Positions 43,104-54,350 are shown, counted from the stretch's first letter. The stretch: 64,000 nucleotides of DNA from an uncultured delta proteobacterium (GCA_963842085.1 CAWJET010000001.1:1344001-1408000); one strand, 5' to 3'. Notes: generated by a model not told the origin, from the letters alone. Made by a program: numbers and translations.

Positions 43104-44426
43104 TCATCCCGGGATTCGCTCGACACAGTCTGCGAAGATTCGGCGGTAGTTGGTCTTCACGGCGAGGCCGCGCGTGATTCCCTCAAGCCCGATCAGCGCG
43201 CGAATCAAAAACACGCTGTGGGCGGGAGATTTGTACAACCGATTCTCCAGCGCAAGCTCGCCGACCTTCGCCGCCTTGCCGACCGTATCGTAGTCGAGCG
43301 GATCGACGGCGCGATCGACCCTCATCGGCTCGAACAGGATGTGAATAATTCGGACCATCGGCGCCGCATCCTGGGTGCGATCGAGATAACCCAGCTTGAC
43401 CATCGCGGCTGCCAGCGATTTGTCGTCGCCGCTCAAAATCGCGCGCGCGACTTGCAGGTTCGCCTTGCGCACCGGTTCCGGGAAGCGCCGGATCGAACCG
43501 AAGTCGAGCACGCCCAGGCGCGGATGATGACTCACCAAATAGTTGCCCGGATGAAAATCGGTGTGCAGCATCCCGAACTCGAGAATTTGCCGCCACGCGA
43601 ACTCGTGAATCTTGATCGCGACCCATTGGCGCAGCTCGAAATCGACCTCGGGACCCATCACGTCGGCCAGCGGATAGCCGTCGACGTACGTCATCGTCAG
43701 CACGCGCCGCGAACTCAGCTCCTTGACGAAGTGCGGAATCATGATTTCGGAATCCGCGCCGAGATGGCGGCCGAACTCGGTCATGTTGCGCGCTTCGTTG
43801 ACGTAGTCGAGCTCTTCGCGCAGGCGCTGCTCGAGTTCCTTGTACACCGCGGCGGTGTCGATTTGCTGGCGCATCACGTCATGGCCGAGCGCCTGCAACG
43901 TCCGCAGCAGCAATTTGAGATTCTGCAGATCCTGCTCGACGGTATCCTCGACGCCGGGGTACTGAATCTTCACCGCCACGTCTACACCTTCGCGGGTGAC
44001 GGCGCGATGCACCTGGCCGAGCGAGGCGGCGGCAAACGCGGTCTGGTCGAAACTTCTGAAGAGCGCTTCGGGCCGCCTGCCAATCTCGCGGCGAATCTGC
44101 TCGGAGATGGTCGCGTAGTTCATCGGCGGCACGCTCGATTGCGTCGCGCGGAGCACGTCGAGCGCCTCGCCCGGCAGGAGGTCCTTGCGAATCGAGAGCA
44201 TCTGGATCAGCTTCATGAACGCGCCGCGAAGCTGCTGGGAGCTCTCGACAATGCGCTGCGCGTTGCGGATGTGAGTCTCGAGCAGGTCGCGCTCGCGCGC
44301 GGGCGCGCTCAGAAACGGCCGCCGCAGTTGGTTCCACAGGTAGCTTGAGCCGACCTGCGACGCGAGCTCGCCCATCTTGATCGCGCGGCGCGCGCGCCCG
44401 CTGGTGATTGAGGTGCGTTTCGCCAT
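43104..44426 (-). CDS. ABC1/UbiB-family atypical kinase
   Basis: AAASLGQVH, VAVKIQYPG, ELDY..EA, HTDFHPGN, LDFG. Confidence 0.92.
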   Translation of the reverse strand: MAKRTSITSGRARRAIKMGELASQVGSSYLWNQLRRPFLSAPARERDLLETHIRNAQRIVESSQQLRGAFMKLIQMLSIRKDLLPGEALDVLRATQSSVPPMNYATISEQIRREIGRRPEALFRSFDQTAFAAASLGQVHRAVTREGVDVAVKIQYPGVEDTVEQDLQNLKLLLRTLQALGHDVMRQQIDTAAVYKELEQRLREELDYVNEARNMTEFGRHLGADSEIMIPHFVKELSSRRVLTMTYVDGYPLADVMGPEVDFELRQWVAIKIHEFAWRQILEFGMLHTDFHPGNYLVSHHPRLGVLDFGSIRRFPEPVRKANLQVARAILSGDDKSLAAAMVKLGYLDRTQDAAPMVRIIHILFEPMRVDRAVDPLDYDTVGKAAKVGELALENRLYKSPAHSVFLIRALIGLEGITRGLAVKTNYRRIFADCVERIPG

Positions 44427-45196
44427 CAGCGGCCGTCGCGCTCGATTCCCACCCGGTTGATCAGCGTGGCCGCCAGCGCCGCGCCGAAGCCATTGTCGAT
44501 GTTGACGACGGTTACGCCGCTCGCGCACGAATTGAGCATCCCCAGCAGCGCCGCCAGCCCGCCCATCGACGCACCGTAGCCGACGCTGGTCGGCACGGCG
44601 ATCACGGGCTTGTCCACCAACCCCGCGACGACCGAGGGCAGCGCGCCTTCCATCCCGGCGACGACGATCAGCACGCTCGCCTCGCGAATCAATTCGAGGT
44701 TCGCGGTCAGGCGATGAATTCCGGCGACACCAACGTCGTAAAAACGCGCGACGCGATTGCCGAACAGCTCGGCGCAGAGCGCGGCCTCCTCGGCGACCGG
44801 AATGTCGGAAGTGCCCGCGCTCAGCACCGTCACGACGCCGTGTCCCGACGGCTTCACGCGCTCCTTCACCACCGCCCCGATGCGCGCATCCGGATGGTAC
44901 ACCAGTGCACGAATTTTGCGCTTGACGGTTCGCGCTTTGTCCGCGTCGAGCCGCGTGATGATGAGATTCGTGCCTGACGCGAGCACGCGCCGTCCAATCG
45001 CCGCGAGCTGAGCAGCGCTCTTACCCTCGCCAAAAACCACTTCCGGAACCCCGCGCCGGACGCTGCGGTGATTGTCGAGCTTGGCGAAGCCAAGATCCTC
45101 GAACGGCAGCTCGCGGAGGTGCTTGAACGCCACCCCGGGAGTCATGCTGCCCGCGGCCACAACGTCGAGGATTTGTCGGATTCGCTTTTCGGTCAT
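44426..45196 (-). CDS. larB: LarB/CpmA (PurE-like) protein
   Basis: PEVVFGEGK, AGTSDIPVAEEA, DVGVAGIHRL, AGMEGALPS, VVNIDNGFGA. Confidence 0.93.
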   Translation of the reverse strand: MTEKRIRQILDVVAAGSMTPGVAFKHLRELPFEDLGFAKLDNHRSVRRGVPEVVFGEGKSAAQLAAIGRRVLASGTNLIITRLDADKARTVKRKIRALVYHPDARIGAVVKERVKPSGHGVVTVLSAGTSDIPVAEEAALCAELFGNRVARFYDVGVAGIHRLTANLELIREASVLIVVAGMEGALPSVVAGLVDKPVIAVPTSVGYGASMGGLAALLGMLNSCASGVTVVNIDNGFGAALAATLINRVGIERDGR

Positions 45197-46482
45197 CGCC
45201 GCTTGAGGAGCTCAGGGCGGAGCGGATGCGCAAGTGTCAGCACCAGTTCGCGGACCGCCCGTGCGTCGCTGCGCGTGACGGTGATCGTCAAATCGCCCTC
45301 GATCAATTTCTCACCGGGCTTGGGAATATGCCCGAGCCGTTCGACCACCAATCCGCCGATGGTAGCATACTCATCCGCCTCCGAAAGCTTGAGGCCGAAA
45401 CGCTCGTTCAGTTCCGTTATCGGCGCGCGTCCGAGCACGGAGAGCACGCGCGGACTGACTATCCTGGCCAACTCCTCGCCAAGGTCGTGTTCGTCCTCGA
45501 TATTGCCGACGATCTCCTCGATCAGATCTTCGAGCGTCAGAATTCCGGCCGAGCCGCCATACTCGTCGACGATCACGGCCAGATTCTCCCCGGTGCGTTG
45601 CATCGCGACCAGCGCCTCGTCGAGCGGCATCGATTCGGGAAAATAGCTGACCGGCCGCATGATGTCGCTCACCGGACGGCTGAGATCGGGCGCCTGCAGG
45701 AGATCGAAGACGTGAACGACGCCGACGATGTCGGTGATGCGACGCCGGAACACCGGGATGCGGCTGAAGCCTTCGCGGCGTACGGTTTCGATCGCGGCCG
45801 CAAGCGAGGTTTCCTCCGGCACCGCGTCAACTCCCACCAGCGGCACCATCGCCTTGCGTGCATCGGCCTGCGAGAAGCGAAAAATTCGGCTGATCATCAG
45901 CTGCTCGGCTGGCAGGATGGCGTCGAGCTGCGGTTGCTCGGCTGCGTCGCTCGGGCGCCGCCGCATCAAGCGCGCCAGGTCATCGCGGCTCAGGAACACG
46001 CTCTCGGCGTCGGCCGGCACGCCCGCAAGCCGGCGGAGCAACCTGCTCATCACGGTCTCCGCACCAAGCAGCGGCGCCAGCACGGTCGCAAGAAAACGCA
46101 GCGGCCGCGCCGCGAACAGCGCAAACGCGTGCGGATTTGCAAGCGTCAGCAGCTTCGGTATCGCCTCGCCAAGCACCAGCGTAATGGGGGTCAGCATAAA
46201 CGGCGCCAGATAAACGAGGTGCGGGCCGATTTGATGCAGGAAGCTGGTGAGCACGACCGCCGCGACCACGGTGGCGAGGTTGGTGCCGGTAAGAGTGAGC
46301 GCCAGCAAGCGATCGCGATTGGCCAGCAATTCGCCGAGCACCCGCGAGCGAGCGTGTCCCGCTTCGCTGCCGGCGCGAACTTTCAAATCGTCGGCGGAGA
46401 CCAGCGCGATCTCCGAGGCGGCGAAAAACGCCTGCACCGCAAGACATCCGATCAGCGCGACGACGAGCCAGACCACCATCAT
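45193..46482 (-). CDS. CNNM/DUF21-CBS-CorC (hemolysin-family) protein
   Basis: FFAASEIAL, GEAIPK, FSRIPV, VDEYGG, CorC tail. Confidence 0.92.
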   Translation of the reverse strand: MMVVWLVVALIGCLAVQAFFAASEIALVSADDLKVRAGSEAGHARSRVLGELLANRDRLLALTLTGTNLATVVAAVVLTSFLHQIGPHLVYLAPFMLTPITLVLGEAIPKLLTLANPHAFALFAARPLRFLATVLAPLLGAETVMSRLLRRLAGVPADAESVFLSRDDLARLMRRRPSDAAEQPQLDAILPAEQLMISRIFRFSQADARKAMVPLVGVDAVPEETSLAAAIETVRREGFSRIPVFRRRITDIVGVVHVFDLLQAPDLSRPVSDIMRPVSYFPESMPLDEALVAMQRTGENLAVIVDEYGGSAGILTLEDLIEEIVGNIEDEHDLGEELARIVSPRVLSVLGRAPITELNERFGLKLSEADEYATIGGLVVERLGHIPKPGEKLIEGDLTITVTRSDARAVRELVLTLAHPLRPELLKRR

Positions 46483-47693
46483 CGATGCAACCTCACCAGC
46501 TCGACGGCCGCGCCGCGCACGCGCTCGATGGTGGCATCGAATTCTCCGAGTCTCAGCTTCTCGCCCGCGCGCGGCACGCGTCCCAGCCTGCGCAGAATCA
46601 GGCTGCTCAGCGTCTTGCCGCCGCCATAGACTTCGATTACACGGGCCGGAGCGAGCGCATCCGCCAGCTTGCCCAGCGCGACCGCGCCCGACGCCGCCCA
46701 TTCGTCGTCGGATATCTTCGTGAGCTCGGGAACTTCGGTGTCGAACTCGTCGCGAATCTCGCCGAACAGTTCCTCGAGCAGATCTTCGAGCGTGACCAGG
46801 CCAAGCAGGCGGCCGTACTCGTTGACCACCAGCGCGATCTGGAAGCGCCCGCGGCGCATCTCGTCAAACAAATCGGCCAGCAGCTTGCCCGGCGGGATAA
46901 AATAGGCCGGCCGCACCAGGCGCTCGACGCGCGGCGGCGACGGGTCCAGGCGGCGCGCTGCGAGATCCTTGGCGTGCAGGATTCCGACAATATTGTCCTG
47001 GCTGTGGCGATAGACCGGCACCCGCGAGAAGCTTTCGTGCGCGATTTCCGCCACCAGCTGCGCCACCGGCATCTCGATGTCGAGCGAGAAAATCCGCTCC
47101 CGCGGCGTCATTACCTCGGCCGCGCGGCGCGCACCGAAGTCGAACACGCGATGAATCATCGCACGCTCGGCGGGCTCAACCTGTCCCTGGTTCTCGCCGA
47201 GCCTGAGCAGCGTCTTGAATTCAGCCTCGGAAACCGGTTCCGGGCGCGGGGCCTGCTCGAGCGGCGTGAAATGCCGCGCGAACGGATGAACGAAATCGGC
47301 GAGCACGGCCAGCGGCCGCGCCGTGAGCCACGCGAGCGCGGCCGGAAACCCAAGCGCGAAGGTCTTGGGCGTAATGTCGCAGAATAAAAGTACGATCAGC
47401 AGCATGGCCGGCGCCGCGACGATCGGGCCCCATTGGTCGCCGAGCCACGCCAGCAGAATTATCGTCGCCAGGCAGTCGGCGAAGATGTTGCAGGCTTCGT
47501 TCAGCCCGAGGATGACAATCAACGACTCGAGCGGCCGGCGCATCAGGCGGTCGAGCGCGTGCTGCACTGACAGGCTCATCTGCTCGCGCGTGTGCTCCAA
47601 TCGCGCCATCGAGAACAGCGCGGTCTCGGAGGCGGCCAGCGTGGCGCTCAGCACGATAAGGATCAGGACCGCAAGAGGCAGGATGGACATCAT
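46479..47693 (-). CDS. CNNM/DUF21-CBS-CorC protein (paralog)
   Basis: AASETALFS, DITPK, FSRVPV, LEDLLEELFGEIRDE. Confidence 0.92.
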   Translation of the reverse strand: MMSILPLAVLILIVLSATLAASETALFSMARLEHTREQMSLSVQHALDRLMRRPLESLIVILGLNEACNIFADCLATIILLAWLGDQWGPIVAAPAMLLIVLLFCDITPKTFALGFPAALAWLTARPLAVLADFVHPFARHFTPLEQAPRPEPVSEAEFKTLLRLGENQGQVEPAERAMIHRVFDFGARRAAEVMTPRERIFSLDIEMPVAQLVAEIAHESFSRVPVYRHSQDNIVGILHAKDLAARRLDPSPPRVERLVRPAYFIPPGKLLADLFDEMRRGRFQIALVVNEYGRLLGLVTLEDLLEELFGEIRDEFDTEVPELTKISDDEWAASGAVALGKLADALAPARVIEVYGGGKTLSSLILRRLGRVPRAGEKLRLGEFDATIERVRGAAVELVRLHR

Positions 47694-47702
47694 CGCTTCA
47701 AT

Positions 47703-48707
47703 CTAGCCGCGCGAGCGCAGCTGATCCCATCCTGCGACAACGGGCGCGCTATCTCCAATCACCTTCAGGCGCTTGCCCCGAACGATCCGGCCGATTCGCC
47801 GCACCCCGACACGCAAGCGGCGCGACAATGCGGCTTCGCTGTGGCCGGGCCTAGCGCAGAAGACCAGTTCGTAATCTTCGCCGCCCGTCAGCGCGTGCAC
47901 CAGATTGCCGCCCATCAGCGCACGGTACGCCGGCGAGAGCGGGATTCGAGACGTGTCGATTTCCGCGCCGACTCCGCTGCGTTCGAGGATGTGACCCAGG
48001 TCCTGCATGAGTCCGTCGCTGACGTCGATCGCAGCCGGCGCGGGCCGGAGCGCCGCCAGGCGTTGCCCGGCATACAGCCGCGCGGTCGGACGGATAAATC
48101 GCTCGACCAGATATTTCCTCGCCGCGCGATCTCTTTTCGCATTACCTCTCACCTTCAGCTTGCCGGCCAGGATGCGCCAGCCGAGCGCCGCATCGCCGAG
48201 CGTGCCGGTCACGAAGATCTCGTCGCCCGGACGCGCCGCGTCTCGTCGCATCACACCGGGTCCGACTTCGCCGAGCACAGCGATCGTGATCGACAGCTCG
48301 CGCGCGCGGGTAATATTGCCGCCCACGATGTCGGTCGCGGCTTCGCGCGCGGCATTGCGCAGACCGGCGTAGATTCCGTCGAGCGTCGATGCCGTGATTC
48401 CGTCGCGCACGGCCAGGTTCACGACGCAGGCGGTCGGATGCCCGCCCATCGCCGCGATGTCGCTCAGGTTGACCGCGAGCGCGCGCGCGCCAAGCGCTTG
48501 CGGCGGGCACCAGCGCAGATCGAAGTGGACATTTTCGACCATGCTGTCGATTGTAAACAGCGTCTGACCGCGTGGGCGTGAGATAATCGCACAATCGTCG
48601 CCGGCGCCTAGAACCGTGCGGCGGCTGAGACGGATTCCCGCGCTCAGTCGCGCGATCAGTTCGAATTCGCTCAAATGTTTGCCGGACGCGTCGGGCAGCT
48701 TGCTCAC
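47703..48707 (-). CDS. thiL: Thiamine-monophosphate kinase
   Basis: EFELI, GDDCA, VNLSDIAAMG, DVSDGL, GGEDYEL; GTG start overlaps the upstream stop. Confidence 0.95.
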   Translation of the reverse strand: MSKLPDASGKHLSEFELIARLSAGIRLSRRTVLGAGDDCAIISRPRGQTLFTIDSMVENVHFDLRWCPPQALGARALAVNLSDIAAMGGHPTACVVNLAVRDGITASTLDGIYAGLRNAAREAATDIVGGNITRARELSITIAVLGEVGPGVMRRDAARPGDEIFVTGTLGDAALGWRILAGKLKVRGNAKRDRAARKYLVERFIRPTARLYAGQRLAALRPAPAAIDVSDGLMQDLGHILERSGVGAEIDTSRIPLSPAYRALMGGNLVHALTGGEDYELVFCARPGHSEAALSRRLRVGVRRIGRIVRGKRLKVIGDSAPVVAGWDQLRSRG

Positions 48708-50014
48708 GGCGTGCGCGCTTTCGTTGGTTGCGCCTGCAGCGGGAATTCCGCGACGAGCGTAAGTCCCCGACGGCCGTCGGTGAACCGCGCCTCGGTCCGG
48801 CCTCCCGCCGCTTCCGCCATCGCCCGCGCGATATACAGTCCGAGTCCGCGCGCCGTGCTGCGATCGCCGTTTCGGCTTGGGCGCTGGAACAGCCCCTCGC
48901 GCTCGGCCGCTGAAAGCGACGGGCCGTTGTCGGTGACCTCGATCGCGATCGCTTCGTTTCGCACCCCCGCGCGCAGCCAGACCTCGCCGGTCGCCGTCCT
49001 TCCGATCGCATAGGCGAGCATGTTTCTCACGATCCGTTCGAAATGCCGGCGGTCGAGTTTGCACGCCGGCAGCCGCGCGATCTCGACCCGCAGATTCAGG
49101 CGCCGCCGCTGCGCCTGCAGCGCACAATCCTCCGCGACTTCGCGGAGCACCTGGTTCGTATCCAGTTCGACTGGCGCCGGGATGATGGCCTCGTCCTGCG
49201 CCTCGTAGTAGTCCAGCACGTTGCTCACCACCAGGTCCATGTTCCACGCAGTCGAGCCGATCCGTCCGAGCAGGTCTGTCCGTTCCTTCGCGCTCATGTC
49301 CGATTCCTCGAGCAGGCTGACGTAGCCGCTCAGCGCCGCGACCGGGCTGCGGATGTCATGCGCCATCGTGGCGATCTGCGTCTGCCGAAACCGCGCCGCT
49401 TCCTCGAGATCCTCTACCTGTTTCTTGAGGCGCCGGCGGTATCGTTCGATGAAGATCGCCGTGTATTGCGCGAAGATTAACGCCGCGGCGAGCCCCATCC
49501 ATCGGTACATCCCGTATGGCGTTTCGATCGGCACGAAATATTCGCCCGCCGCGTAGCCCAGAACCGCCGTGAGCGCCATCGCGAACTGCCAGCGCGTGCC
49601 CCAGCTCACGAACGCCGCGGTTGCCAGCGGACACAACATGATCGCGACGAAGCGTGACTCGGGGTCTCCTGTCGCCCGGCTGATCACGATGAACATCGCG
49701 ATCAGAAACACGTTGTAGACCAGGATCCAGAATCTCCAACGCCGCCTGAAAGCGCGCGTCCAGACCAGGCCGAAGAACAGGCAGGTGGCTCCCAGGATCA
49801 GCCAGTGCGGCCCTGTCCCCGGCGCATTCGTTCCGCGCACATGCTGATCGTACGCAAGGTACGCCAGCAGCATGAAGATTCCGAGCGCACCGCCAAGCTT
49901 CAGGACTCGCAGCGATTCCTCGTCATCTTCGGTCCAGCTGAAGTCCGAAGTGGCGCGGCCGGGCTCGTTATACGTTCGCCCGTATGAGCCGTTGTCTTTG
50001 CTTTCCTCCGCCAA
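48704..50014 (-). CDS. Membrane-bound histidine kinase-like protein
   Basis: About 5 TM, MAHDIRSP, DNGP, GLGL; N-box degenerate. Confidence 0.85.
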   Translation of the reverse strand: MAEESKDNGSYGRTYNEPGRATSDFSWTEDDEESLRVLKLGGALGIFMLLAYLAYDQHVRGTNAPGTGPHWLILGATCLFFGLVWTRAFRRRWRFWILVYNVFLIAMFIVISRATGDPESRFVAIMLCPLATAAFVSWGTRWQFAMALTAVLGYAAGEYFVPIETPYGMYRWMGLAAALIFAQYTAIFIERYRRRLKKQVEDLEEAARFRQTQIATMAHDIRSPVAALSGYVSLLEESDMSAKERTDLLGRIGSTAWNMDLVVSNVLDYYEAQDEAIIPAPVELDTNQVLREVAEDCALQAQRRRLNLRVEIARLPACKLDRRHFERIVRNMLAYAIGRTATGEVWLRAGVRNEAIAIEVTDNGPSLSAAEREGLFQRPSRNGDRSTARGLGLYIARAMAEAAGGRTEARFTDGRRGLTLVAEFPLQAQPTKARTP

Positions 50015-50077: not shown

Positions 50078-51277
50078 TCAGCGCCGGATTTCATCAAGCG
50101 CTTTCTTCATCGCGCTCAATGCAAAGTCGACCTCGTCCGGCCTGATCGTCAGCGCCGGCGCTAGCCGGACAACGTCGTCCGCGTTCAGCGTCCAGTTCAC
50201 GACCACCCCGCGCGCCAGCGTCGCCGCAACGAAGCGCCGCGCCAGCGCCGCGTCGCGAAACTCGATACCCACGATCAGCCCGAGCCCGCGCACCGCCGCG
50301 ATTTCCGGCGCGCGCATCTCCAGCAGTCGCCGCACCAGCTCCTTGCCAATCGTCGCGGCGCGCTCATGCAGGCGCTCGCGCACGATCGCGTTCAGGGCTG
50401 CTAGTCCGGCCGCGCACGAAAGCGGATGGCCGCCGAAGGTCGTGATGTGCCCGAGCGGCGGATCGTGCGAGAGCGTGCCAAGCAGCTCGTCACGGCTGCA
50501 CAACGCGCCCAGCGGCAGACCGCCGCCGAGTGCCTTGGCCATCACCACGATGTCAGGCACCACGCCAAAGTGCTCGAGCGCAAACATCCTGCCGGTGCGG
50601 CCAAAGCCCGTCAGCACCTCGTCGAAAATCAGCAGCGCGCCGGCGCTGTCGCATCGTTCACGAAGCGCGCGGATGAATCCCATCTCCGGGATGCGCACGC
50701 CGCCCTCAGCCTGCACCGGCTCGACGACCACCGCCGCGATCGTCGAATCGATTTTCTCAAGCGCCGCTACGTTACCGAACGGCAGATGCCGCACCGGCCC
50801 GGGCAGGGCGCCAAACGGCTCGCGCATCGCGCGATTTCCAGCCAGCGCGAGCGCGCCCATCGTGTCGCCGTGATAGGCGCCGTCGAACGCGACGAATCCG
50901 GCGCGTCCGGTGAACTTGCGCGCCACCTTCAGCGCGCATTCGATCGCTTCCGCCCCGCTGTTGGTGAAATACACACGCTCGAGCGGCCGCGGGAGAAGCT
51001 CGACCAGCCGCCGCGCCAGCATAACCTGGCTCTCGATCACATACTCGCCGTATACCATAACGTGCAGATGGCGACGCGCCTGCTGTGCAATCGCGTCGAG
51101 CACTTCGGGATATCCGTGGCCCAGCGCCGACACTCCAATTCCCGCGATGAAATCGAGATAGCGCCGCCCGTCCGACGCGATCAGCCACGAACCCTCGGCG
51201 CGCGATATCTCCAATCCGATCGGTGCGCCGGAAGTCTGCGCCAGGTACTGGCGGAAATAATCGCCGAGTTGACTCAT
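50078..51277 (-). CDS. Class-III PLP aminotransferase (ArgD/omega-TA-like)
   Basis: YLDFIAGI, NSGAEA, YHGDT, EPVQAEGG, FDEVLTGFGRTG, AKALGGG, TTFGGHP. Confidence 0.94.
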   Translation of the reverse strand: MSQLGDYFRQYLAQTSGAPIGLEISRAEGSWLIASDGRRYLDFIAGIGVSALGHGYPEVLDAIAQQARRHLHVMVYGEYVIESQVMLARRLVELLPRPLERVYFTNSGAEAIECALKVARKFTGRAGFVAFDGAYHGDTMGALALAGNRAMREPFGALPGPVRHLPFGNVAALEKIDSTIAAVVVEPVQAEGGVRIPEMGFIRALRERCDSAGALLIFDEVLTGFGRTGRMFALEHFGVVPDIVVMAKALGGGLPLGALCSRDELLGTLSHDPPLGHITTFGGHPLSCAAGLAALNAIVRERLHERAATIGKELVRRLLEMRAPEIAAVRGLGLIVGIEFRDAALARRFVAATLARGVVVNWTLNADDVVRLAPALTIRPDEVDFALSAMKKALDEIRR

Positions 51278-52500
51278 CGCTGTTTCACCATCATGTCGAC
51301 GAACTCGCCGCCACCGTGGCGCCAATCAAGCGGCGGCGATTGCATCTCACCGGGCGCACATACGTACGGTATCCCGATTGCTCTGACCGTGGCGCCTATG
51401 TCGGCGGCTTCCGATTCATTGCCGGCGACCGCCATCGCTTCGATCCGTTTGGACACACCCGCGATGCAATCGCGAAACGCTGCGAGATCGCGCACCGCGG
51501 TCACGTGCACCGTCCTGAAGCCCGGCGAAATTTTGAATGGATCGTTCAAGCCAGGAAGCGGCTCGAAAACCACCGTCCATTCGAGTCCTCGACCCTCAAA
51601 CAGCGCGACCGGCTCGCCCGCAAGCGCACGCCAGCGCGCACGCTCCCGCACTGCACGTATTTCAATAGCATCGCGCAACGGGATACGCGCCGGCGGCATC
51701 GATTCCCCGATACGTTCAAGCGCCCCTGATATTCGGATCGCCAGCTCGCGCGCCGCACCGCCATCCGGACTCACCACGAACACCTGATGGAGCGACAGGC
51801 AGCCCAGTTGCTCGAACAATGCGACGTCGCGCGCGAGCGACTCTGCGACACGGGCAATTCGCGACGGATCGATCCCACCGGGAGCGACTACCGCAGCGCT
51901 GACCCGGCTGCCAAATCCGATTACGTTAGGCCGATGCAGCGACTCGATCGTCGCGTCGTCGCCATACGCCGCCACCAGTTCGCAGTTCGCAATCAACGCG
52001 GCGGTCAGGTCGGTGCGCGCGCGGCTCCAGTGAGAAACTTCGATGCGCGCGCCGGCGTCGGGCTCGATCTCGGCGAGAGTGCGCGCAAACTCCGCAAAAA
52101 ATACCGGCTCGGCCGAGGCGGTTTTGATCAGCACACCTGCGCCCGCCACCAGGGCGATCGCAATCTCATGCATTCCGGCGCCCGCGACGTTGCCCGCGGC
52201 GATGAACCCTACCGTCTGTGGCCTGCCCGTCGCGTCGCAGGCCGAAATTCGCGCCGCAATCGACTTTAATGCGTCGCCAGTGAATGGCCTCAGTAGCGCG
52301 CCGATCGACTCTTCCAGCATCGCGACGGAATATCCCGCCGAGTGCGCGATTGCAGCGACCGCATCGCGCCGGCGCGCGTAATTGCGGTTGCGCCATAGTG
52401 CGAATGCGCGCGCTAGGGCGTCGGCCATCCGCTCCGCGCTCGGCCCGGCATTTTCTGCTACTCGCATTCGCACCGCGCTGGACGCCGGCGTCGCGCTCAT
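51274..52500 (-). CDS. LuxC-like acyl-CoA/acyl-protein reductase
   Basis: IAAGNV, AYGDDATI, GFGSRVS, DVALFEQLGCLS (catalytic Cys position). Confidence 0.85.
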   Translation of the reverse strand: MSATPASSAVRMRVAENAGPSAERMADALARAFALWRNRNYARRRDAVAAIAHSAGYSVAMLEESIGALLRPFTGDALKSIAARISACDATGRPQTVGFIAAGNVAGAGMHEIAIALVAGAGVLIKTASAEPVFFAEFARTLAEIEPDAGARIEVSHWSRARTDLTAALIANCELVAAYGDDATIESLHRPNVIGFGSRVSAAVVAPGGIDPSRIARVAESLARDVALFEQLGCLSLHQVFVVSPDGGAARELAIRISGALERIGESMPPARIPLRDAIEIRAVRERARWRALAGEPVALFEGRGLEWTVVFEPLPGLNDPFKISPGFRTVHVTAVRDLAAFRDCIAGVSKRIEAMAVAGNESEAADIGATVRAIGIPYVCAPGEMQSPPLDWRHGGGEFVDMMVKQR

Positions 52501-53615
52501 CGCAAAGCTCCCGCCGCTTCAGTCGCGGAGAATTGCCCGATCCCGAGTGCGCAGCCGCGAGCTTCTCCACCTGCCCCTCTACCCAGCACGCGAACCCGGC
52601 CCTGCTCGACCCAGCCCAGGTCTTCCGTCATCACGGCGGACACCGAGCCGACGTTGGCCAGATCGAAAAATGTGAGCAGTCCGATCTCACCGTCAGGCAT
52701 CAGCCGCAGCGTGCTCGGATCCCGCGCCGTCACACGCAGCCATGGCGGCCGAATTTTGTACCGGACTTTCGGATATTCTTGCGTATTCGACACGCCCGGG
52801 CAGGTGAACGCCGTCGCGTCGTAGAGCTGCGAGCACAATTCCGTCATCCCGTATTCGTTGATAACCATCGACGGCGCGAGCGCGAGCAATTCTCCCGCCC
52901 GCGCAATCACCTCCGAGGCTTGCATCGCCACGGCCTGCCCTTTCGCCCCGCCGGTATCCATCATCCGCGAACCCGGCGCGAGCCGAAGTTTGACCCCAGC
53001 GTTGCGCAGCTCGGAAAACAGCGCAGCAAAGGCAGCCGTGGTCCCCAGGGTGCAGACCGGTTCGCGCAGCGCCTCGCAGCCGCTAAGAAACGCGGTCGCC
53101 GCTTTAACATCGACACGGTCGCGCGACGCCGCTGCGAGGTGCGTCCGCGTACCGAATTCCTCGATACACCAGCTCACCATTGCTGCCAGCGACGACTCCG
53201 GCATCACGTCCGCCGTCGGATGCATCGCGAGTATCGCCATCCGTCGAGCGTCGGGAAACAGCATCGTCCGCAGATGGGCGATGGCAGAGGCGCGATAAAT
53301 CTCGGGGCGCACGACAATATGACGTCCGCGGCGTTCACGCCCCTGCGTGGTCCCGCTGGTGAGAAACACGCAGGCGTCGGGCGATCGCGCGGCGCCATCC
53401 GCCGCAAGGTCGGCGTACTTGAACGCCACATTGCTGACCGCGGGGACGTCGTCCACGCTGCGCACCGCCCCGGGACCAACGCCGCGCCCCTCGCAATAGC
53501 GCCGATACGCGCCAACCGTCTCGAATTGATGACGAAAAACCTCCAGCGCGAGCCGCTCGAACGACGCGGGCTCGGGCCTGTGGATAAAGGTGAGGACCTG
53601 TTCGTAGATGGACAT
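52497..53615 (-). CDS. LuxE-like acyl-protein synthetase
   Basis: FLTSGTT, DTGGAKG, EYGMTELCSQ, DLAN, TEDLG, C-terminal RGC. Confidence 0.88.
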   Translation of the reverse strand: MSIYEQVLTFIHRPEPASFERLALEVFRHQFETVGAYRRYCEGRGVGPGAVRSVDDVPAVSNVAFKYADLAADGAARSPDACVFLTSGTTQGRERRGRHIVVRPEIYRASAIAHLRTMLFPDARRMAILAMHPTADVMPESSLAAMVSWCIEEFGTRTHLAAASRDRVDVKAATAFLSGCEALREPVCTLGTTAAFAALFSELRNAGVKLRLAPGSRMMDTGGAKGQAVAMQASEVIARAGELLALAPSMVINEYGMTELCSQLYDATAFTCPGVSNTQEYPKVRYKIRPPWLRVTARDPSTLRLMPDGEIGLLTFFDLANVGSVSAVMTEDLGWVEQGRVRVLGRGAGGEARGCALGIGQFSATEAAGALR

Positions 53616-53936
53616 CGGCTTCGCGCAACGGGCCGGGTGCGAATGATCATGGCACCGCCGCCCACGCCCATTCAATCCCGCGTCGGCGTCTCTGGACTAG
53701 GAAATGCCTATATTTACGCGGCTCTCGAAATGTTCTAAGCTTTGTGCCGTTGTTGGGTGGCGGGTAGGCCTCGGCAGCGGCCAGCGGGCCGGGTAGCGGG
53801 GTGTTCGGCAGGTTACAGCGCTATTACTTAATCATTAGTCGCCGGCCTCAGCCTACACTAGGTTGTAACAATTTTGCGCCAGCTGCATACTTTTGCTAAA
53901 CAGGTTACCATCGGCTCGGGGGAGAAACATCGCGAA

Positions 53937-54350
53937 ATGAAAAAATTCGCCGCCGGCGTAATGCTAGGCTTCCTGGCCAGCTGGGCAGTTGCTTTTGCTT
54001 CGTCCAACGTGACGCACAATGGCAATTTCTGGAACCGCCTCAATAGCGCCGCCAAAGACGGTTACGTCAATGGCTATTCCGATGCGATGCGGGTGAGCGT
54101 CGGCAAACTCGACGTGCTTAACTCGGCTGCCGATCTGTTTCATTGGAAGGGCGCCCGCCGCATTATCCATCAGCTCTCGGGGCAGCTTTCGATGGGCGAG
54201 ATGAGTGCGAATCAGGCGGTCAAGCGGCTCGACGAGCTCTATTCGAATCAGAAGTACAGCGAGCTCGACCTCGGCGAGGCGTTGCAGACGCTCTCGATTC
54301 GTGCCAACGAAACTGCGATTCCCAATGCGTCCGTGAAGGGCGCGAAGTAA
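53937..54350 (+). CDS. Secreted hypothetical protein
   Basis: MKKFAAG..AVAFA signal peptide, GGAG SD, terminator downstream. Confidence 0.75.
   Translation: MKKFAAGVMLGFLASWAVAFASSNVTHNGNFWNRLNSAAKDGYVNGYSDAMRVSVGKLDVLNSAADLFHWKGARRIIHQLSGQLSMGEMSANQAVKRLDELYSNQKYSELDLGEALQTLSIRANETAIPNASVKGAK

Follow-up and report, generated by a model that had tools for sequence, protein, structure and literature searches.

A LuxE-like, LuxC-like and aminotransferase gene trio in Binatia as a candidate route to preQ1 that would replace QueC and QueF

Which acid is activated, and which amine is made, by an operon that joins a LuxE-like and a LuxC-like gene to a gene for a class-III aminotransferase? The question is raised by a stretch of 64,000 nucleotides from an uncultured soil bacterium, a delta proteobacterium (GCA_963842085.1 CAWJET010000001.1:1344001-1408000), referred to here as the window, in which three minus-strand genes occupy positions 50,078 to 53,615. 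The original prediction, made from the sequence alone, saw in them a candidate carboxylate-to-amine pathway, with a fatty amine or aminolipid precursor, or an analogue of the ArgB/ArgC/ArgD steps, as its chemistry. Judged by the sequence comparisons described below, the operon is likely to be something else, a carrier-free carboxylate-to-amine module supplying 7-aminomethyl-7-deazaguanine (preQ1) for the queuosine of tRNA. Its genes are:

52497..53615, minus strand: gene for a predicted LuxE-like acid-activating enzyme (372 amino acids; ATG at 53615; Pfam LuxE)
51274..52500, minus strand: gene for a predicted LuxC-like thioester reductase (408 amino acids; Pfam LuxC)
50078..51277, minus strand: gene for a dedicated class-III, pyridoxal phosphate (PLP)-dependent aminotransferase (399 amino acids; Aminotran_3)

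The reading frames and the two ATGA start/stop overlaps that join them (52500-52497 and 51277-51274, both read directly in the sequence) are as originally described. A longer LuxE-like frame that opens with TTG and extends as far as 53675 is probably unused.

The three genes very likely form one functional unit that takes a carboxylate to an aldehyde and then to a primary amine. Since the pathway to queuosine has a gap at QueC and QueF, and queG or queE adjoins related trios, the acid is taken to be 7-carboxy-7-deazaguanine (CDG) and the amine preQ1. The change from COOH to CH2NH2 is the exact net change between these two compounds. The trio thus probably converts CDG, by way of a 7-formyl intermediate, to preQ1, replacing both QueC and QueF.

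The first protein carries the features of an acid-activating enzyme. The Pfam LuxE family (PF04443) matches it with 52.8 bits (cut-off 24.9), and the NCBIfam model for true LuxE (NF052244) with 54.1 bits where 550 are required; by these scores it is a member of the broad family and not a true LuxE. A Protein Atlas look-up returned generic LuxE/PaaK clusters only. The ANL motifs are kept, and the TSGTT loop and C-terminal RGC noticed earlier are both there, the former at residues 86-90. In all 23 aligned orthologs Gly88, Thr89, Lys225, Tyr255-Gly256-Met257, Glu259, Arg346, Arg353, Gly354 and Cys355 are invariant. In LuxE of Photobacterium phosphoreum, according to the accessible text of PMC9157457, the corresponding features are Lys238, Arg355 and an acyl-accepting Cys364 in a short C-terminal tail. 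The nine residues from Arg346 to Cys355 equal the Arg355/Cys364 spacing in that numbering; the match is drawn from spacing because phmmer left this stretch unaligned, the alignment with chain E of PDB 7xc6 being only partial. The enzyme is predicted to adenylate an acid, which would then be bound as a thioester to Cys355 of the same protein.

The second protein also matches its Pfam family (LuxC, PF05893; 139.7 bits, cut-off 21), and it too scores far below the NCBIfam model for the true luminescence protein (NF052251; 43 bits, cut-off 750). The check with hidden Markov models that was proposed for LuxE and LuxC thus puts both proteins above the cut-offs of the broad Pfam families and below those of the true-LuxE and true-LuxC models. 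The cysteine of EQLGCLS, singled out from the start, is Cys234 and aligns with the acylated Cys286 in chain A of 7xc6, the P. phosphoreum LuxC; the GCLS around it is kept in 95% or more of 61 sequences. This is the only LuxC-family gene of its genome. The protein has 408 residues, the 7xc6 chain 477, with 174 and 191 residues, respectively, after the cysteine; the tail is unaligned. In P. phosphoreum LuxC a C-terminal oligomerisation element (P460-P488) closes a long hydrophobic cleft, as described in the part of PMC9157457 that is accessible. For the LuxC-like enzyme the prediction is that Cys234 accepts the acyl group, which is then reduced to the aldehyde at the expense of NAD(P)H.

The third protein is an aminotransferase of class III (PF00202, 348.8 bits, cut-off 30.5) that falls below the cut-off of every named NCBIfam aminotransferase model. 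Acetylornithine aminotransferase comes closest (TIGR00707, 357.7-358 bits, cut-off 410; NF002874, 377.9 bits, cut-off 457), and the LysJ model gives 312 bits with a cut-off of 700. Among individual relatives it is about equally close to LysJ (277 bits) and to the putrescine aminotransferase of Escherichia coli (271 bits, aligned end-to-end). The true ArgD of the genome (471.9 bits, 39% identical) is encoded elsewhere, so the operon enzyme is a paralog. Its DEV..G.GRTG motif and PLP lysine are present as first noted; that lysine is Lys248, and together with Asp219 (at N1 of PLP), Glu191 and Arg371 it is invariant in 26 of 26 sequences. Lys248, Glu191 and Arg371 map onto Lys300, Glu243 and Arg426 of YgjG, and the Glu/Arg pair is the one that handles the 2-oxo-acid in YgjG and OAT. 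The enzyme is predicted to turn an aldehyde into a primary amine, and its dedication to the LuxE/LuxC unit is supported.

The substrate site differs from those of the relatives. All 55 orthologs compared have Asp138 in an HGDT motif. At this position an arginine salt-bridges the substrate carboxylate in AcOAT, in OAT and in GABA-AT (PMC4244111, accessible text); arginine is also found in mycobacterial ArgD and PuuE and, as HGRT, in the true ArgD and a GabT-like paralog of the same genome, and PatA has Lys183. A three-residue insertion also creates a conserved HVMVYGE loop. The aspartate would argue against amino-acid-like or fatty substrates and would suit a polar heterocycle that donates hydrogen bonds.

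Relatives of the aminotransferase are found outside the operon context. A scan of a genome collection with the aminotransferase alignment matched at least four loci in Binatia, at least about 75 in Bacteroidota and at least one in archaea. None of the aminotransferases from outside Binatia adjoins LuxE or a que gene among the matches listed; one locus (L164) has a weak LuxC-like match about 7 kb away. The Bacteroidota enzymes (L145-L220) are stand-alone class-III aminotransferases, 39-50% identical, with an H.MVYGE loop and HGST or HGNT at the position of interest. Three of the loci, L145-L147 (Bacteroidota/Balneolales), have HGDT as in the Binatia enzyme, and in the two of these that were scanned no LuxE, LuxC or que gene lies within 10 kb.

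The linkage of the three genes is seen across the class. The class sampled is Binatia, going by the names on homologs, which put the organism of the window in Candidatus Binatus / Binatia; the sample comprised 151 genomes including an unpublished one (G274). Sixty loci from 16 families were fetched, leaving out G274, on which no conclusion rests. Families are given below by number, f1 being that of the window. A LuxC-like gene is present in 129 of the 151 genomes. LuxE adjoins LuxC in 59 of the 60 loci, and in 56 the aminotransferase follows downstream on the same strand, giving the trio in identical order; the other four genomes have an ortholog elsewhere (52-73% identical). This linkage is far beyond chance, and the survey agrees with the association proposed from the window alone. 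Fusions are also found. For example, LuxC and the aminotransferase share a single reading frame in all eight f88 loci. Among the longer relatives listed, PF05893 occurs with PF00202 in 62 of 100 protein clusters and PF04443 with PF05893 in 62 of 78 LuxE clusters; the 78 longer LuxE relatives listed include no LuxE-Que protein fusion. Because the order is conserved and both LuxC-aminotransferase and LuxE-LuxC fusions exist, the trio is read as a dedicated unit, and the carboxylate-to-amine logic of the original prediction is well supported. The gene set spans the class, is single-copy and looks housekeeping-like.

Elsewhere in the phylum, in classes other than Binatia, the aminotransferase is missing from all 12 LuxC-like loci compared. 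In the two of these loci that were scanned (L118:9553-10860, minus strand; L119:4138-5349, plus strand) the LuxE gene is preceded by one for a flavin adenine dinucleotide-dependent (Pyr_redox_2/GIDA-like) oxidoreductase. These LuxE-LuxC pairs look like a different, also uncharacterised, system.

The clue to the substrate is a pathway with a gap in its middle. The genome of the window (G000) is 100% complete. It encodes a full-length QueE (TIGR04349, 284.7 bits), one gene of the QueD/PTPS family, TGT (491 bits), QueA (383 bits, its gene adjoining tgt) and QueG (found by tblastn, 45% identity). No QueF was found, and no QueC above the cut-off (79.7 bits, cut-off 150.3). A YhhQ-type transporter for preQ0 or preQ1 is also missing, both from this genome and from its family (0 of 7).

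In the class, TGT is present in 148 of 151 genomes and QueA in 58 of 61. QueE is present in 18 of 18 f1 genomes, a general QueE model matches 85 of 151 at E <= 1e-12, and the Cx14CxxC subtype of QueE is above its cut-off in the three f88/f4 genomes tested. QueF was found in only 16 of the 151 genomes, all in three families (6 of 8 in f86, 8 of 8 in f93, 2 of 2 in f95; 0 of 133 in the others), and QueC above its cut-off in 13, all in the same three families. It is these families that have no LuxC-like gene (0 of 18 genomes). Conversely, none of the 129 genomes with a LuxC-like gene has QueF or an above-cut-off QueC.

Two further gene arrangements concern these enzymes. In f4 genomes (e.g., G229 C1:3010666-3011481) a tandem double PTPS/QueD-like domain is encoded in one frame of about 295 amino acids, and through such a tandem frame genus g5 has three PTPS matches per genome. 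At L135:293-1492 (plus strand), in G000, the queE gene overlaps the stop of the gene directly 5' of it, which is for LarC, of the nickel-pincer cofactor; this coupling looks unrelated.

Related trios adjoin queuosine genes in some metagenome loci. A scan with the LuxE alignment gave 80 loci, in 18 of which an aminotransferase adjoins LuxE. Ten of the 18 have the order aminotransferase-LuxE(-LuxC), and the upstream sequence is readable in seven of these. Two (L271 and L277, 48-55% identical to each other) have QueG directly 5' on the same strand, and a third (L313) has QueE directly 5' of the aminotransferase, also on the same strand and 58% identical to the QueE of G000. The route from CDG to preQ1 through the trio may well be ancestral in the whole class and present in other uncultured lineages too, in operons with queG or queE.

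The sequence of events would then be as follows. QueD and QueE would produce CDG, which the LuxE-like enzyme would adenylate with ATP and transfer onto its C-terminal Cys355. The LuxC-like reductase would receive the acyl group on its Cys234 and, using NAD(P)H, turn it into 7-formyl-7-deazaguanine, a known compound that QueF mutants release (PMC13740343, accessible text). The aminotransferase, with PLP and probably glutamate as the donor, would turn this aldehyde into preQ1. Because fusions exist, the aldehyde may be handed on directly. Insertion of preQ1 into tRNA by TGT, and completion of queuosine by QueA and QueG, would follow as usual. Each reaction of the trio is inferred here, as are the acid itself, the cofactors and the amino donor.

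Several observations weigh against this assignment. The QueD-like protein of G000 scores 58 bits, below the QueD cut-off of 89. YhhQ-family transporters are present in 19 of 61 class genomes (e.g., 5 of 6 in f4), so salvage is possible in some of the families that have the trio. The either/or pattern of the trio and QueC/QueF counts for less than the number of genomes suggests: in a tree of TGT and QueA from 41 genomes, f86, f93 and f95 form one clade (support 1.0; one Fitch change), so the pattern goes back to one evolutionary event and must be shown by many unrelated genes as well. G000 and its family also have a QueC-like paralog that is full-length but scores weakly (about 64-84 bits). This PP-loop protein (G000 C1:854487-855065, minus strand = L133:5934-6581) is encoded in all 18 f1 genomes; its gene context in G000 is not one of queuosine synthesis, the neighbours being hpnJ (a hopanoid gene), a methyltransferase gene and one for an ABC binding protein of the BMP family.

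Linkage and motifs give further grounds for caution. A tblastn search for que genes found none up to 7 kb from the trio in any of the 60 class loci, and none in the whole window. No preQ1 riboswitch was found 5' of the operon (Rfam, up to E = 5), and neither that nor any other riboswitch reached the gathering threshold in the 18 of the 60 class loci that were scanned. Four of the seven readable metagenome loci have unrelated or unnamed genes upstream and no que gene. The aminotransferase of L313 is of a different subtype (38% identical) with HGLT in place of HGDT, so Asp138 is not universal among the que-linked enzymes. The H.MVYGE loop is common to a large Bacteroidota aminotransferase family whose genes do not adjoin LuxE or LuxC.

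Other amines have to be weighed against preQ1. The trio might make some other small polar or cationic amine, the link with queuosine genes being coincidental. Examples would be diamines made from omega-amino acids: putrescine from gamma-aminobutyrate by way of 4-aminobutanal, or 1,3-diaminopropane from beta-alanine. The near equality of the putrescine aminotransferase and LysJ scores fits such a product. So does Asp138, since an acidic residue, where PatA has lysine and acid-handling enzymes arginine, suits a cationic distal group; and searches of G000 found no speE, OKR-type decarboxylase or panD. Yet the genome has two pyruvoyl arginine decarboxylases, and with them a route towards putrescine, and panD occurs together with the trio in most families (e.g., 17 of 17 genomes in f5, 17 of 18 in f88). 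A diamine would explain neither the QueC/QueF gap nor the queG and queE genes directly 5' of related trios, and this reading is considered unlikely. Two further functions were considered and found no support. The trio as the missing putrescine route was set aside with the two arginine decarboxylases of G000; as a replacement for panD, giving beta-alanine from malonate semialdehyde, it was rejected because panD, although not found in this complete genome, accompanies the trio in most families. The gene is also absent from f4 (0 of 18) and f93 (0 of 8).

The two products first proposed for the operon fare worse than a polar amine. Conversion of a fatty acid through the fatty aldehyde to a fatty amine, a precursor of aminolipids, has precedents: in luminous bacteria the substrate of LuxE and LuxC is myristic acid (PMC9157457), and a LuxC-like reductase and a transaminase make dodecylamine in the Streptomyces Tab pathway (10.1101/2025.08.11.669332), each as given in the accessible part of the source. 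No positive evidence for it came from the operon itself. The scores on the true Lux models are low (54 of 550 and 43 of 750 bits), the reductase is shorter by the difference between 408 and 477 residues, the acidic residue in the substrate site of the aminotransferase is invariant, and the conserved neighbours of the trio in the class loci include no lipid gene and none for an acyl carrier protein (ACP) or an acyltransferase. The housekeeping-like conservation fits poorly, the queuosine gap would be left unexplained, and a fatty amine is accordingly held to be very improbable. An adenylation-based analogue of ArgB/ArgC/ArgD or LysZ/LysY/LysJ, in which an N-acyl-glutamate or aminoadipate derivative would be taken through its semialdehyde to N-acyl-ornithine or lysine, hardly comes into question. 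In NCBIfam and PDB the aminotransferase does have acetylornithine aminotransferases and LysJ as its best relatives, but it is below every ArgD and LysJ cut-off and has lost the carboxylate-binding arginine. The search for arg and pro genes that was proposed with this idea found that G000 has its own argC (388.6 bits), proA (470.6 bits) and true argD.

CDG to preQ1 remains the preferred reading. The surroundings of the operon can be described briefly. Its immediate flanks are:

53616..53941, no strand assigned: intergenic stretch 5' of the operon, bounded on the other side by a divergent gene for a small secreted protein
48704..50014, minus strand: sensor histidine kinase gene (HisKA and HATPase_c domains), 64 bases downstream of the aminotransferase gene

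The promoter presumably lies in the intergenic stretch, where there is no Rfam match up to E = 5 and no consensus promoter; in a scan for promoters and terminators the signals did not exceed the shuffled expectation. The histidine kinase is probably a neighbour outside the pathway. It is found 3' of the aminotransferase in 9 of 12 loci of f1 and in 0 of 48 loci of the other families. Beyond the small secreted-protein gene lie genes for an HtrA-like protease, a PEP-mutase-family protein and pyruvate phosphate dikinase. On the 3' side the kinase is followed by purM and two CNNM/CorC genes. This part of the window (44426-49247) holds, besides purM and the two tandem CNNM/CBS/CorC genes, one whose product has a C-terminal domain like PurE (AIR carboxylase); at its N-terminal end the purM frame is long and extends into the frame of the kinase. 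Because in other families the trio adjoins phoH-ybeY-lnt, the region gives the impression of a ybeZYX-lnt neighbourhood that has been rearranged. Over the class, the opposite strand recurrently carries prfB, lnt, ybeY and phoH beside the trio, and unnamed small open reading frames recur as well.

Some of these small frames form a pattern. At L085:1989-5089 (plus strand) a run of four to five paralogous frames of about 100-190 amino acids, with no Pfam match, lies 5' of LuxE on the same strand. A run at the same position is seen in f89, f88, f94, f96, f5, f2 and f98 (31 loci in one cluster) and is missing from the family of the window; some of the frames may be shadow frames of a high-GC genome. 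The only tRNA genes near the trio are for tRNA-Ala and tRNA-Ser, in 4 of 60 loci, and were judged irrelevant. In an f3 locus (L084:9635-9680, minus strand) a match to the small RNA Acido-Lenti-1 (40.3 bits, gathering score 37) is directly 3' of the aminotransferase gene.

Queuosine synthesis is currently treated as settled. In the literature searched, whose coverage took in few subscription journals, no aldehyde/transaminase route from CDG to preQ1 and no characterised LuxE-LuxC-aminotransferase operon is described. The accessible part of a November 2026 review shows only the QueC/QueF route and presents QueF as having no close functional analogues (PMC13740343). If the proposal is right, a pathway gap is filled for a whole class of abundant soil bacteria, and genome surveys that score bacteria without queC and queF as unable to make queuosine need revising. 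Lux-type acid reductases would be seen to act on a nucleobase-like acid, and a new biocatalytic acid-to-amine pair would be at hand. By our count one ATP, one NAD(P)H and an amino donor would be consumed, and the nitrile of the standard route would be avoided. Should preQ1 prove wrong, what is left is a conserved module from carboxylate to amine that is so far uncharacterised.

Among known systems the closest to the first two proteins is the LuxC-LuxE fatty acid reductase of P. phosphoreum (7xc6), in which two proteins reduce an acid with neither coenzyme A (CoA) nor a carrier, going by the accessible text of PMC9157457. As in that complex, the activating enzyme is of the ANL type, has no C-terminal subdomain and bears its acyl-accepting cysteine in a short tail, and the reductase resembles aldehyde dehydrogenases and has an acyl-cysteine. 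The sequences are very distant, however (E = 6.6e-07 and 4.1e-11, and far below the NCBIfam equivalog cut-offs), and the trio reductase is about 70 residues shorter. The fate of the aldehyde differs as well: in luminous bacteria it is burnt by luciferase, whereas in the trio it would be aminated, and the predicted substrate is a deazapurine acid instead of myristate.

The logic of thioester to aldehyde to amine is shared with PigE (PDB 4ppm), TamH, and TabE with TabA, and the f88 protein resembles the reductase-transaminase fusions of natural-product pathways in joining a reductase to a class-III aminotransferase. The likeness to PigE is confined to one half, the PigE model (837 positions) matching the f88 fusion only at 405-730, the aminotransferase part. 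In the PigE, TamH and Tab systems the chains are fatty or polyketide and the thioesters those of ACP or CoA; the trio is a single-copy set found throughout a class. The aminotransferase has the fold, the PLP residues and the Glu-Arg pair of PatA/YgjG and ArgD/LysJ (271-277 bits). It differs from both groups in the three-residue insertion with its HVMVYGE loop and in having Asp138 where PatA has Lys183 and ArgD, OAT and GabT have arginine; Gln274 of YgjG is not conserved in it.

With QueC and QueF the trio shares no homology, only the predicted start and end, CDG and preQ1, as drawn in the accessible scheme of PMC13740343, and a phyletic distribution that is mutually exclusive over the 151 class genomes. 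In the QueC/QueF route the carboxylate becomes an amide and then a nitrile, which undergoes a four-electron reduction; in the route proposed for the trio it would pass through a thioester and an aldehyde and be aminated by transamination.

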